The translations under genes and the position numbers were made by a program. A model generated the notes under the pieces. The model saw nothing but the letters and a program-made list of their open reading frames with translations, was not told where the DNA came from and did not search any database. Shown here piece by piece: positions 41,198 through 44,805 of a DNA stretch of 64,000 nucleotides. The stretch is taken from NCBI RefSeq assembly GCF_056712565.1, contig NZ_CM160072.1; one strand, written 5' to 3'. How positions within the stretch are numbered: position 1 is the stretch's first letter; every line of letters begins with the position of its first letter.

Positions 41198-41202
41198 TGT
41201 TG

Positions 41203-41230
41203 TTGATTTTTCCCGAATCTGTGGTAAATT
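41203..41230 (+). promoter_or_regulatory. Late promoter PR'-like (-35 TTGATT, 16-bp spacer, -10 TAAATT)
   Basis: gtggTAAATTtgctctaacgatggg closely matches lambda PR' (gggTAAATTtgactcaacgatggg) from memory. Confidence 0.6.
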
Positions 41231-41278
41231 TGCTCTAACGATGGGCGTTTTATGCCTGACGTTAGAAGATTTTTTACA

Positions 41279-41302
41279 CCCCGCCGCCTGGCGGGTTTTT
41301 TA
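41279..41302 (+). terminator. tR'-like intrinsic terminator downstream of PR'
   Basis: cccgcc-gcct-ggcggg followed by T6. Confidence 0.7.
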
Positions 41303-41421
41303 TGACTGAAATCGCGTCAGTACAGTAAACGCGCTGGTGGCGGTGAATACCTGTCTTTCAGCTTGCTGGCTTTTTCGACAAGAGTTATTGGTGTGTCACG
41401 TTAACCGGAAAAGGAAAAGAC

Positions 41422-41619
41422 ATGCTAAAACAGCAGGATATGACAGAAACCGCCAGAGTGGTGTTTAATGAATTAAGCGTTACCGACCCGGCGACAGTCG
41501 GGGAGATAGCGCAGAATACTTACCTTTCACGCGAACGCTGCCAGTTAATACTGACTCAGCTGGTTATGGCGGGTCTGGCAGACTATCAGTTCGGTTGTTA
41601 CAGACGCCTTCCGCAGTGA
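41422..41619 (+). CDS. Hypothetical small protein
   Basis: 65-aa ORF followed by a hairpin terminator at 41606-41630. Confidence 0.35.
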   Translation: MLKQQDMTETARVVFNELSVTDPATVGEIAQNTYLSRERCQLILTQLVMAGLADYQFGCYRRLPQ

Positions 41620-41630
41620 AGGCTTTTTTA
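41606..41630 (+). terminator. Intrinsic terminator
   Basis: gccttc-cgcagt-gaaggc followed by T6. Confidence 0.6.
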
Positions 41631-41769
41631 TTTGTGGTAAATGGGCGGCTGGTGGGTGTTAGGGGCACCCACCAGCCATCTGCTCATGCGTCCGGATCAC
41701 AAGCAAACCTCAGGCCCACTGCTTTGCGCAAAAGCAGAATGAGCCTATCAGAGACAGGCTTAATGATCC

Positions 41770-42819
41770 ATGCTTAATACTGTAAAAATATCCAGTTGTG
41801 AGTTAATCAACGCCGACTGCCTGGAATTTATCCGGTCGTTACCCGAAAATTCTGTTGACCTGATAGTCACGGACCCGCCGTACTTTAAAGTGAAGCCTGA
41901 GGGCTGGGATAACCAGTGGAAGGGCGACGATGATTACCTGAAGTGGCTGGACCAGTGTCTGGCGCAGTTCTGGCGGGTGCTGAAACCTGCCGGAAGTCTT
42001 TACCTGTTCTGTGGTCATCGCCTGGCATCTGATATCGAAATCATGATGCGTGAACGCTTCAGTGTGCTGAACCATATTATCTGGGCGAAGCCGTCCGGAC
42101 GCTGGAACGGATGCAACAAGGAAAGCCTGCGGGCGTATTTCCCCGCCACAGAGCGCATTCTGTTCGCGGAACATTATCAGGGGCCGTATCGTCCGAAAGA
42201 TGCCGGGTATGCGGCGAAGGGCAGTGCACTGAAACAGCATGTGATGGCCCCGCTGATTTCTTACTTTCGTGATGCGCGCGCGGCCCTGGGGATAACGGCA
42301 AAACAGATTGCAGATGCCACAGGAAAGAAAAACATGGTGTCGCACTGGTTCAGTGCCAGTCAGTGGCAGCTACCGAATGAAAGCGATTATCTGAAATTAC
42401 AGGCGCTGTTTGCCCGGGTGGCAGAAGAGAAGCATCGGCGTGGTGAACTGGAAAAGCTCCACCACCAGCTGGTGGATACGTATACCTCACTGAACCGGCA
42501 GTATGCGGAGCTGCTGAGTGAATATAAACATCTGCGGCGGTATTTTGGCGTGACGGTGCAGGTGCCGTATACCGATGTGTGGACGCATAAACCGGTGCAG
42601 TTCTATCCCGGGAAACATCCGTGCGAAAAACCGGCAGAAATGCTGCAGCAGATAATCAGCGCAAGTAGCCGTCCTGGTGATCTGGTTGCGGATTTTTTCA
42701 TGGGGTCGGGTTCAACGGTAAAAGCGGCGATGGCACTGGGGCGTCGTGCGATTGGTGTTGAGCTGGAGACCGGACGTTTTGAGCAGACAGTCAGGGAAGT
42801 TCAGGATTTAATCGTTTGA
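41770..42819 (+). CDS. Orphan DNA methyltransferase (N6-adenine/N4-cytosine family, motif IV DPPY before motif I FxGxG)
   Basis: 349 aa with DPPY at the N-terminus and DFFMGSGST near the C-terminus; no adjacent restriction endonuclease gene. Confidence 0.8.
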   Translation: MLNTVKISSCELINADCLEFIRSLPENSVDLIVTDPPYFKVKPEGWDNQWKGDDDYLKWLDQCLAQFWRVLKPAGSLYLFCGHRLASDIEIMMRERFSVLNHIIWAKPSGRWNGCNKESLRAYFPATERILFAEHYQGPYRPKDAGYAAKGSALKQHVMAPLISYFRDARAALGITAKQIADATGKKNMVSHWFSASQWQLPNESDYLKLQALFARVAEEKHRRGELEKLHHQLVDTYTSLNRQYAELLSEYKHLRRYFGVTVQVPYTDVWTHKPVQFYPGKHPCEKPAEMLQQIISASSRPGDLVADFFMGSGSTVKAAMALGRRAIGVELETGRFEQTVREVQDLIV

Positions 42820-42868
42820 AACGGATGAGATTGCAGAATTAATTACGCACCATTATTATTCTGCTCCC

Positions 42869-42944
42869 GGCCCTTTAGCTCAGTGGTGAGAGCGAGCGAC
42901 TCATAATCGCCAGGTCGCTGGTTCAAATCCAGCAAGGGCCACCA
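42869..42944 (+). tRNA. Phage tRNA with anticodon CAU (Ile2/Met; ileZ-like)
   Basis: 76-nt cloverleaf, acceptor ggccctt/aagggcc, anticodon loop ct-CAT-aa, T-loop GGTTCAAATCC, encoded CCA. Confidence 0.8.
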
Positions 42945-42951
42945 TCACATA

Positions 42952-43028
42952 CCGCCATTAGCTCATCAGGAAAGAGCGCCAGCCTTCGAAGCTGGTTGCG
43001 CGGAGTTCGGGTCCCCGAAGGCGGTCCA
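42952..43028 (+). tRNA. Phage tRNA-Arg (UCG), slightly degenerate (argN-like)
   Basis: Anticodon stem ccagc/gctgg with loop ct-TCG-aa; D-stem gctc/gagc; one acceptor and one T-stem mismatch; encoded CCA. Confidence 0.55.
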
Positions 43029-43041
43029 TTATCTGTATCCT

Positions 43042-43118
43042 GCGTTGTTAGCTCAGCCGGACAGAGCAATTGCCTTCTAAGCAATCGGTCACTGGTTCGA
43101 ATCCAGTACAACGCGCCA
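43042..43118 (+). tRNA. Phage tRNA-Arg (UCU) (argO-like)
   Basis: Perfect 7-bp acceptor gcgttgt/acaacgc, anticodon loop ct-TCT-aa, T-loop GGTTCGAATCC, encoded CCA. Confidence 0.8.
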
Positions 43119-43134
43119 CACTTATTTTCCCTGG

Positions 43135-43158
43135 CTCGCTTTTGCGGGCTTTTTTTTA
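43135..43158 (+). terminator. Intrinsic terminator after the tRNA cluster
   Basis: gctcgc-tttt-gcgggc followed by T8. Confidence 0.6.
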
Positions 43159-43161
43159 AAT

Positions 43162-43380
43162 GTCTCACAATTCAGGCGGTTGACTGTTGTCTGGTTTGCG
43201 GGGAGTTTGTTAAAAGAAACTGGCATGGTGAATCCCCCTGTGCGGAGGGGCAATCAGCGAGTAGGTATATGGGATAATCGCGGATTCAGGTGCTGGTACT
43301 GAATTCACCGGGAGGCACCCGGCACCATGCAATGGCACATAGCGCCACTCTCCAGCCCCTCTCCGGAGGGGCTTTTCTGT
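43162..43380 (+). ncRNA. Non-coding unit 1 (candidate sRNA): conserved boxes plus terminator
   Basis: ctcacaattcag / TTGACT / gcatggtgaatccccctgtgcggagggg / caccgggaggcacccggcaccatg / cccctctccggaggggcttttctg; no credible ORF. Confidence 0.4.
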
Positions 43381-43567
43381 GCCGGATACATCACAGTTTC
43401 TGGAACCTTAGGTACTACAGTATCAGTCAGGGTGCTATATTTTCAGATGTGATGAAAGCCTGTCAGCAGGCAGGGCGTATCGGAAATGACCCAGTAGAGA
43501 AAACGTTGACTCAGATACCGGTGCTGAGTTACCGGGAAACCGGCATCACATGACCGCTATCCTTCCA

Positions 43568-43595
43568 GGCCCATCCGCTCCGGTGGGCCTTTTTA
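43568..43595 (+). terminator. Intrinsic terminator between the two non-coding units
   Basis: ggccca-tccgctccgg-tgggcc followed by T5. Confidence 0.6.
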
Positions 43596-43630
43596 CTGCA
43601 GAAAACAGGTTCCCCGTTAAATGCTATGTT

Positions 43631-43866
43631 GCTCACAATTCAGTAAGTTGACAGTTGCCTGTCAGACTGGGCATTTGTTAAAAAAATTTCGCATGGTGAA
43701 TCCCCCTGAGCGGAGGGGCGACTGGTGACGGTATAATCTCTGATTATCAAAACGAGAATGACGCGGGTTTAGTGGCACCGGGCTGAACTCACCGGGAGGC
43801 ACCCGGCACCATGTGCATGATGATACAGATACGCGGCTTTAGCCCCTCTCCGGAGGGGTTTTCTTG
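43631..43866 (+). ncRNA. Non-coding unit 2 (candidate sRNA), diverged paralog of unit 1
   Basis: Same ordered boxes as unit 1 (TTGACA, gcatggtgaatccccctgagcggagggg, caccgggaggcacccggcaccatg, cccctctccggaggggttttcttg). Confidence 0.4.
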
Positions 43867-44093
43867 TGGGCAAAAAAAGCCCGCGCTGGGAGACGCGGGC
43901 GGCAAGGAATAAACAATAAAACGTGAAGTAATATTTCAGCTGGCGAATAATACCCCATAGTAATCACTCTGCGCAACTGCGCGGTCTTTTTCGAATTGCG
44001 GGCTGTCGTCTCTCTTCTGCCATTGTCCTGTAACTTCCGGACTTCAGCCCGCTCCTTATTTTACTCACAATATTATCCCGGCCGGGAGGATTC

Positions 44094-44321
44094 ATGGCAT
44101 TTAAACACTATGACGTGGTCAGGGCGGTATCGCCGTCAGACCTTGCGAAACGACTGACACAAAAACTGAAGGAGGGCTGGCAGCCGTTTGGTAGTCCGGT
44201 GGCCATAACCCCTTATACCCTGATGCAGGCGATTGCAGCAGAAGGTGATGTGGTGGTCAGTGGTGCAACTGAGCCGGATTGGTACTACGTCATCGTACTG
44301 GCCCGGCATTCCAGGCCATAA
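44094..44321 (+). CDS. Small protein (DUF1737-like) upstream of holin
   Basis: 75-aa ORF with GGGAGGA RBS; position matches the small gene preceding holin in Stx-type late regions (from memory). Confidence 0.5.
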   Translation: MAFKHYDVVRAVSPSDLAKRLTQKLKEGWQPFGSPVAITPYTLMQAIAAEGDVVVSGATEPDWYYVIVLARHSRP

Positions 44322-44589
44322 AAGACAGTCTGGCAGTGGGACTAAATGCACTGACGCTGATGGATATTACCAAAAATGTAACGTATGGCGTTGAGATAGA
44401 AAGTCTGGCGCTGGAGATAAATGCACCGGCATCATCATAAAAAGTGAGCCAGTCAAATGGAAGGTATCGTTAAACTCACCGGTAGTGTCAGTGGGTCGTC
44501 TGAGACGCTTGCATGAGTTATCAGAGCCATCAGTAGTTAACTGGTGGCTTTTTTATTGTTTTCAGCTTCCGGATAACGGGAGACGGGGT

Positions 44590-44805
44590 ATGGACCAGAT
44601 GGAAAAAATCACAACAGGTGTGTCATACACCACGTCAGCGGTGGGAACGGGCTACTGGTTCCTGCAGTTGCTGGACAGGGTTTCCCCGTCTCAGTGGGCG
44701 GCAATAGGCGTGCTGGGGAGTCTGCTGTTTGGGCTGCTGACATATCTGACTAACCTGTATTTCAAAATCAGAGAGGACCGTCGTAAGGCGGCACGGGGAG
44801 AGTAA
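44590..44805 (+). CDS. Holin (S-like, dual-start MDQMEK)
   Basis: 71 aa, two TM helices, charged C-terminal tail; the track ORF has an unlikely 35-codon extension. Confidence 0.8.

Follow-up and report, generated by a model that had tools for sequence, protein, structure and literature searches.

What does a prophage carry in the toxin's place when its late region is built like that of a Shiga toxin (Stx)-converting phage? The question is raised by a 64,000-nucleotide stretch of contig NZ_CM160072.1 (NCBI RefSeq assembly GCF_056712565.1; hereafter the window), in which positions 41200-44590 cover the late region of a lambdoid prophage. A preliminary description of this DNA, made from the sequence alone, had recognized the layout of Stx2-converting phages and proposed that non-coding units stand there instead of stxAB. 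With a probability of roughly 85%, the region is the late regulatory and accessory ("moron") segment of an ompW lambdoid prophage in an extraintestinal pathogenic Escherichia coli (ExPEC)-type strain, a member of the Stx2-phage module family without the toxin, whose toxin slot holds small RNAs (sRNAs) of the STnc100 family.

A Stx2-phage late region without stx

The relationship to Stx phages is evident from the distribution of similar sequences. A megablast search of 41200-44590 against 50,697 phage records returned 384 matching records, mostly Stx1- and Stx2-converting phages. The closest is the Stx2a phage Stx2_EH1910 (LC567834), which has the same quuQ-type Q gene. Positions 39900-43156 align with 2701-5961 of this phage at 93.1% identity in an unbroken block of 3.26 kb, from rusA to 37 nt past the tRNA gene argO. 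The following 1,335 bp of Stx2_EH1910 (5962-7296), which comprise stx2A and stx2B, have no counterpart in the window, and homology resumes at STnc100 sequence starting ∼42 nt after the stx2B stop codon. The left breakpoint lies immediately past the terminator downstream of argO (43133-43157, plus strand), which forms the left edge of the stx slot; homology ends at 43156. The breakpoint on the right falls at a conserved motif, (C/G)TCACAATTCAG.

A tblastn search with Stx2A and Stx2B over the whole 64-kb window found no stx sequence (best E-values 0.07 and 0.7), and the pairing of stxA and stxB between late promoter and lysis genes that defines a Stx-converting phage is absent. Because the alignment is collinear, homology resumes beyond the missing block and tblastn detects no stx, the likeness to Stx phages is real homology, and the description of a Stx2-phage-type late region lacking the toxin genes stands. 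The proposed order of elements was also borne out, each listed item of 41200-44590 being present at or near where it had been placed. Read on the plus strand from 40005, the order is rusA, Q, the late promoter PR' with its terminator tR', an open reading frame (ORF) of 65 amino acids (aa), a methyltransferase gene, three tRNA genes, non-coding cargo, an ORF with a DUF1737 domain, and holin. The cargo (43160-44090) extends over ∼930 nt without a credible protein gene.

Neither the architecture nor the locus is new. The layout of Stx-phage late regions is on record, as are stx-negative relatives including Nil3 (AM051322), and the locus itself is already present, identical at the late region, in the ExPEC genomes UTI89, ATCC 11775, S88, IHE3034 and many others. 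The stx-less junction between argO and the first unit of the cargo occurs in 1,036 of 5,426 complete E. coli genomes (∼1 in 5). Among lambdoid late regions, this layout is a common variant and has been sampled well.

STnc100-family units in the toxin slot

The cargo appears to comprise four clustered sRNA genes, of which three run forward and the fourth converges on them. Two of the forward units are full-length matches to the Rfam family STnc100 (RF02076, gathering score 47). Unit 1 (43187-43381, plus strand; predicted RNA 43223 to ∼43380, terminator 43354-43373) scores 136.3 bits at 43194-43384, and unit 2 (43655-43868, plus strand; predicted RNA 43691 to ∼43866, terminator 43841-43860) scores 161 bits at 43662-43871. 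Between them lies a middle unit (43433-43598, plus strand; predicted RNA ∼43447-43596, terminator 43567-43590) that matches RF02076 at 43423-43596 with 30.1 bits (E = 6e-4), under relaxed thresholds only and below the gathering score. Judged by its sequence and pairing, the middle unit is a divergent relative and not a scored family member. AgvB, AsxR, Esr41 and other Rfam families gave no match at threshold in the slot.

All three units, folded separately, adopt the same architecture of a four-helix scaffold plus terminator. From 5' to 3', it consists of an 8-bp closing helix, a first hairpin, a variable segment, a hairpin of 8-10 bp, a short GC hairpin, an unpaired linker and an intrinsic terminator; the linker is 15-30 nt long and different in each unit. 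Conservation of the scaffold was examined in a ten-member alignment that contains the three units of the window, PasD1 and PasD2 of enteropathogenic E. coli (EPEC), and copies from four phages. Double-sided compensatory changes maintain pairing at 10 of the 26 consensus pairs, four of them in the closing helix. Since the scaffold pairing is kept through such changes, the middle unit is a real, divergent paralog.

The relation of these units to the toxin differs from one to the next. Unit 1 and the middle unit, 476 bp together, replace stx2AB in its exact place, as the preliminary description had supposed. That supposition fails for unit 2, which is 87% identical to the STnc100 copy of Stx2_EH1910 and Stx2a_1447 that starts ∼42 nt after stx2B, and which by this identity and by its position is the ortholog of that published copy. 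STnc100 RNAs therefore seem to accompany the toxin and not merely to replace it. The presence of STnc100 downstream of stx2B is known (PMC12370729, PMC12711010), as are the PasD/STnc100 relationship and its link to Stx-type prophages (bioRxiv 10.64898/2026.05.13.724894), where a shared ancestor of PasD and STnc100 is proposed and STnc100 hits near PasA and PasC are put down only partly to PasD/STnc100 similarity. No description of the middle unit as a third family member, or of the three-in-a-row arrangement, was found in the literature; what this adds is small. The middle unit is found in five phage records, all stx-less and none Stx-converting, and in 672 of the 5,426 complete genomes, where nothing is annotated over it. 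A divergent STnc100-family gene in ∼12% of complete genomes thus escapes Rfam-based annotation.

Promoters for the forward units can be placed by analogy with PasD. RNA-seq coverage and northern size place the 5' end of PasD2 at NC_011601:741157, on the G of GCAUGGUGAAUCC. A PasD 5' end on the G of GCAUGGUG positions a promoter composed of a −35 element, an 18-nt spacer and a −10 element in front of the units. Transferred to the window by alignment, it gives predicted 5' ends at 43223 for unit 1 and 43691 for unit 2. The corresponding promoter-like sequences are TTGTCT, an 18-nt spacer and TGt-TAAAAG for unit 1, and TTGCCT, an 18-nt spacer and TGt-TAAAAA for unit 2, compared with TTGACT, an 18-nt spacer and TAAAAA for PasD. 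The middle unit has an extended −10 element, TGcTATATT (43433-43441), and both this putative promoter and the RNA are conserved in the phage PhiR5_2 though the sequence just upstream has diverged. An alternative −35 element for units 1 and 2 (TTGACA/TTGACT at 43180 and 43648) was rejected, as the hexamer found 17 nt farther on (GAGTTT, GCATTT) does not resemble a −10 element and TAAAAA follows only at a spacing of 25 nt.

Just upstream of the proposed −35 elements of units 1 and 2 is a conserved sequence, CTCACAATTCAG-N4-TTGAC(T/A)GTTG, at 43164-43186 and 43632-43654. It is also found after stx2B in Stx2 phages and in PhiR5_2, and is absent from PasD-type and PPyecE-type copies. The element marks the right edge of the stx cassette; candidate roles include an UP-like element, a regulator site and a recombination point.

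The promoter assignment has a consequence for the Rfam model. As the mapped PasD 5' end implies a −35 element, an 18-nt spacer and TGt-TAAAAA at the start of the model, its first ∼29 positions are probably promoter DNA (43194-43222 and 43662-43690 in the window, 7330-7358 in Stx2_EH1910). This reading affects the interpretation of published variants downstream of stx2B. In O157:H7, variants associated with hemolytic uremic syndrome (HUS) include a T/C single-nucleotide polymorphism at +90 and a T deletion at +103 (PMC12711010). These positions are within a base or two of the predicted promoter's extended −10 element and of the spacer between −10 and start. The HUS-associated variants may alter sRNA expression rather than sRNA sequence.

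The fourth candidate is encoded on the minus strand, from ∼44060 (an approximate 5' end) to 43873, and belongs to the EcOnc08/21/42 family. Its terminator (43900-43879, followed by a U run) is preceded by ...CACGUUUUAUUGUUUAUUCCUUGCCG..., with a seed-like CCUUGCC, and a promoter-like ATGCCA-17-GATAAT is present at 44100-44072 on the same strand. In alignment, the RNA is nearly identical over ∼130 nt, including CCUUGCC and the terminator, to the EPEC sRNA E2348C_1409.E2348C_1408.IGR, which was detected by RIL-seq. That RNA is listed as a homolog of EcOnc08/21/42 of enterohemorrhagic E. coli, with a CCUUGC(C) seed complementary to a motif common to its targets, and EcOnc42-type sRNAs are described as "bookending" toxin genes (PMC7547250). 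A weak minus-strand match to OmrA-B (25 bits) was set aside, being explained instead by this homology, and neither AgvB (RF02702) nor AsxR (RF02703) matched the candidate at gathering threshold or E ≤ 1. The candidate overlaps, in antisense, a terminator of the plus strand (43969-43984) and the leader of the esterase remnant described below.

Late control, expression and origin of the slot

The region begins with lambdoid late-control elements. Q (40376-41197, plus strand) encodes a QuuQ-type late antiterminator of 273 aa with two Antiterm domains (PF03589 matched twice, E = 3e-27 and 8e-22) and a CxxCxGxG zinc motif. It belongs to PHROG 127 ("anti-termination protein Q-like") and is annotated as "antitermination protein" by RefSeq in UTI89 and as quuQ in Stx2_EH1910. 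PR' follows immediately (41203-41242, plus strand), with a −35 element TTGATT (41203-41208), a 16-nt spacer, TGg-TAAATT (−10 TAAATT at 41225-41230) and a −10-like AACGAT at 41237-41242. Its core, GGTAAATTTG....AACGATGGG, equals that of lambda PR' at 19 of 23 positions, in agreement with the near-identity noted earlier, and a single mismatch separates PR' from that of Stx2_EH1910. In lambda, the −10-like element at the AACGAT position is a σ70-dependent pause inducer. The intrinsic terminator tR' (41280-41301, plus strand), detected by a terminator scan 43 nt beyond PR', has a 6-bp all-GC stem followed by T6, and homology to most Stx2 phages starts exactly at tR'. A consensus promoter scan misses PR' as well as the sRNA promoters, each of which scores 8/12; PR' was placed by alignment with lambda and the sRNA promoters by the mapped PasD 5' end.

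In the lysogen, PR' would fire constitutively and transcription would halt at tR', giving a predicted transcript of ∼65 nt (41237-41301). Farther downstream, intrinsic terminators would separate the 65-aa ORF, the methylase with the tRNAs, each sRNA gene and the esterase remnant from one another. Because each intervening module ends in such a terminator, the lysis genes would be reached only once Q makes RNA polymerase terminator-resistant. The terminator scan found 16 terminator-like sites between PR' and holin, where shuffled sequences gave 4.1 ± 1.9. This excess would fit modules that are silent or insulated in the lysogen and are then read through by Q-modified polymerase upon induction.

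The sRNA genes probably do not depend on this read-through. The place of stx2AB, from the argO terminator to the STnc100 gene, would hold two extra members of the STnc100/PasD family, followed by the orthologous STnc100 gene and the convergent EcOnc42-type gene. Each forward sRNA would have its own σ70-type promoter and terminator, a conserved four-helix 5' scaffold and a unit-specific single-stranded linker. Such RNAs most likely depend on Hfq and act by base pairing, on differing sets of targets. They would already be expressed in the lysogen, and read-through and genome replication would raise their level on induction.

Several studies of homologous RNAs bear on this point. PasD1 and PasD2 are abundant, Hfq-dependent sRNAs in uninduced culture with many RIL-seq partners (PMC8550237). 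In strain EDL933, eleven STnc100 copies are transcribed in ordinary uninduced culture, one of them verified by northern blot (PMC5331693). The copy that follows stx2B, known as EcOnc27/sRNA103, binds Hfq, and its overexpression raises fimZ and espA transcripts (PMC12711010). Given these homologs and the promoter-like site and terminator of each unit, expression by Q read-through alone, as the preliminary description had envisaged for whatever occupies the slot, is unlikely. Read-through is plausible as added expression and is probably not the main mode for the sRNAs.

Of the alternatives to a set of sRNA genes in an exchanged slot, one concerns history. A former Stx2-converting prophage that had lost stx2AB by deletion and is now decaying would be expected to resemble this locus in several ways: stx2AB is missing as a cleanly bounded block, nanS-p has an internal deletion, the endolysin gene is frameshifted, and Stx2a phages also use the ompW site. 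However, the nearest Stx phages are only ∼92-93% identical, which does not suit a recent derivative, and no Stx phage record carries the 476 bp that fill the slot. Phage records with the middle unit are uniformly stx-less, the array is present in the inducible phage PhiR5_2, and the argO-to-unit-1 junction is both widespread in complete genomes and found in the stx-less phage Nil3. These observations together make simple loss of the toxin unlikely. Cassette exchange between related phages at a recombination-prone position, in either direction, fits best, and the toxin slot would then be a site of exchange that is occupied by sRNA genes in some cases and by stx in others.

An equally improbable alternative concerns the nature of the units, which might be parts of the Q-dependent late transcript that fold into structures and serve the esterase or lysis genes, for instance as leaders or processing signals; they would then be made on induction only. 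They do lie between PR' and holin in the orientation of the late operon, and in most relatives the esterase gene is directly preceded by a copy of STnc100 or PasD. Yet every unit ends in a strong terminator of its own, a promoter-like element is conserved before each unit while sequence further upstream diverges, and the homologs yield discrete Hfq-bound RNAs without induction (PMC8550237, PMC5331693). Moreover, the esterase gene is destroyed in this prophage and the units are intact.

That the cargo encodes small proteins is scarcely credible: a RefSeq pseudogene (partial hypothetical protein, 43213-43338, minus strand), a 33-aa ORF inside the middle unit and a 55-aa ORF annotated in PhiR5_2 would suit it, but all six nucleotide differences from PhiR5_2 in the 33-aa ORF change the amino acid, a pattern on which a coding reading of the middle unit was rejected, the substitutions preserve the RNA hairpins, and Rfam scores are strong.

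Several points weigh against the interpretation of the slot as a set of functional sRNA genes. The −10 hexamers proposed for units 1 and 2 (TAAAAG, TAAAAA) do not end in the conserved T and escaped the consensus scan. Evidence for sRNA expression comes from homologs and not from the window locus or an ExPEC host. An Hfq sRNA that simply carries a seed would not usually have so strongly conserved a 5' scaffold, and the scaffold may have another role; to our knowledge, the function of STnc100 RNAs has not been established in any organism. Finally, the endolysin frameshift and truncated esterase suggest that the prophage is decaying, in which case some elements may be relics.

Conservation of the scaffold also invites a broader proposal, which is speculative and rather doubtful. 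The four-helix 5' scaffold that the middle unit has in common with STnc100 and PasD could be a functional module of its own, for example a platform for protein binding or stability, on which lambdoid phages swap 3' seed regions. The tandem array of three genes would then be a diversified sRNA cassette that competes with stx for the late-region slot, and, with the promoter placed by the PasD 5' end, the HUS-associated variants would be promoter variants of this sRNA.

Neighboring genes and known relatives

The prophage adjoins ompW, with an integrase gene (26812-27942) directly beside it, and has Qin/Rac-like gene content (dicB, DicF RNA, ydfABC and hokD/sok). The site ompW also serves several of the matching Stx2a phage records (e.g., Stx2_12E129_PPompW) for integration, so toxin-carrying and toxin-less relatives share it. 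Among other RNAs in the window are the DicF antisense RNA in the prophage early region (31348-31399), the type I toxin-antitoxin locus sok/hokD (38174-38498), which immediately precedes the nin-like region, and, at 398-777, the tyrTV locus with RtT RNA and two tRNA-Tyr genes.

Between tR' and the slot, the conserved 65-aa ORF (41422-41619, plus strand) belongs to PHROG 331 (function unknown), is followed by a terminator at 41606-41629, and is annotated as a hypothetical protein at the same position in Stx2 phages. The next gene (41770-42819, plus strand) encodes an orphan N6-adenine DNA methyltransferase (PF01555, N6_N4_Mtase, E = 2e-42), called "DNA methylase" in Stx2 phages. NCBIfam models of adenine-specific methyltransferases match it below their cut-offs, and the RefSeq annotation of the identical UTI89 locus shows no restriction gene beside it. 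The three tRNA-like sequences of the preliminary description all pass two detectors, ARAGORN and Rfam RF00005. On the plus strand they are a CAU tRNA, annotated as tRNA-Ile and of the ileZ type (42869-42944; 72.5 bits), tRNA-Arg-UCG or argN (42952-43028; 43.4 bits), and tRNA-Arg-UCU or argO (43042-43118; 70.1 bits); the trio is named ileZ/argN/argO in Stx2a_1447.

Beyond the slot lies a remnant of NanS-p, a 9-O-acetyl sialate esterase (44094-44425, plus strand). It consists of a DUF1737 N terminus (PF08410; ORF 44094-44321, 75 aa) and a C-terminal fragment. In a tblastn search with NanS-p of Stx2_EH1910, residues 1-74 align at 90.5% and residues 596-626 at positions 44333-44425, an internal deletion of ∼520 codons, and RefSeq annotates a pseudogene. 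A terminator (44523-44558, plus strand) precedes a class II holin gene (44590-44805, plus strand), which opens the lysis cassette. The lysis genes continue with a frameshifted lysozyme gene (45498-46032) and a lysis protein gene (46331-46795). In the lysozyme gene, an rrrQ-type endolysin, a run of seven G residues at 45655-45661, compared with six in UTI89, splits the frame into ORFs 45498-45740 and 45547-46032. This single-base indel, upstream of which 9.5 kb show no mismatches, is the sole difference from UTI89 in the compared stretch; it may reflect a genuine frameshift that inactivates the gene or an error in sequencing the homopolymer.

The Stx2 phages are the closest known system. In Stx2_EH1910, Stx2a_1447 (AP012536) and the 933W/Sp5 type, the order is the same: Q, PR'/tR', the 65-aa ORF, methylase, ileZ-argN-argO, terminator, slot, STnc100, nanS-p and holin. 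Nucleotide identity is 92-93%, and Stx2_EH1910 additionally shares the QuuQ-type Q and PR'. Unlike these phages, the prophage in the window lacks stx2AB, has two extra STnc100-family units in its place, has an internally deleted nanS-p and resides in an ExPEC host rather than in Shiga toxin-producing E. coli.

At the late promoter, the region would resemble lambda PR'-6S RNA and StxS in having a constitutive PR' with TAAATT and AACGAT, an immediate terminator and a predicted short lysogen RNA (PMC7547250). The Q protein type differs, and the transcript predicted here, at ∼65 nt, compares with 194 nt for lambda 6S and 247/74 nt for StxS.

Among sRNAs, STnc100 (RF02076) corresponds to EcOnc27/sRNA103 of E. 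coli O157:H7, of whose copy downstream of stx2B unit 2 is the positional ortholog (PMC12370729, PMC12711010). The window differs in having three tandem copies, the middle one below the Rfam threshold. PasD1 and PasD2 of EPEC E2348/69 share with the units the promoter layout, the 5' end GCAUGGUGAAUCC, the 5' scaffold helices and a place between Q and the esterase or holin genes, whereas the 3' parts of the units bear no relation to that of PasD, which contains the UGUGAG seed and the PasD terminator, so that the units are not PasD proper.

Three stx-less phages show parts of the arrangement, each differing from the window in its Q gene and surrounding modules. In the stx-negative PPyecE_EH1910 (LC567835), the module of 65-aa ORF and methylase is followed by an STnc100 copy upstream of nanS-p. 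There, toxin-antitoxin and TerB-like genes replace the tRNAs, and AgvB replaces the EcOnc42-type RNA in the same convergent position, without sequence similarity to the window RNA beyond a shared upstream GCAGTTGCGCAG. In Nil3, a phage of O157:H7, argO is directly followed by a unit-1-type STnc100 gene at 97% identity. In PhiR5_2 (PV340546), the whole three-unit array is collinear with that of the window at 78% identity.

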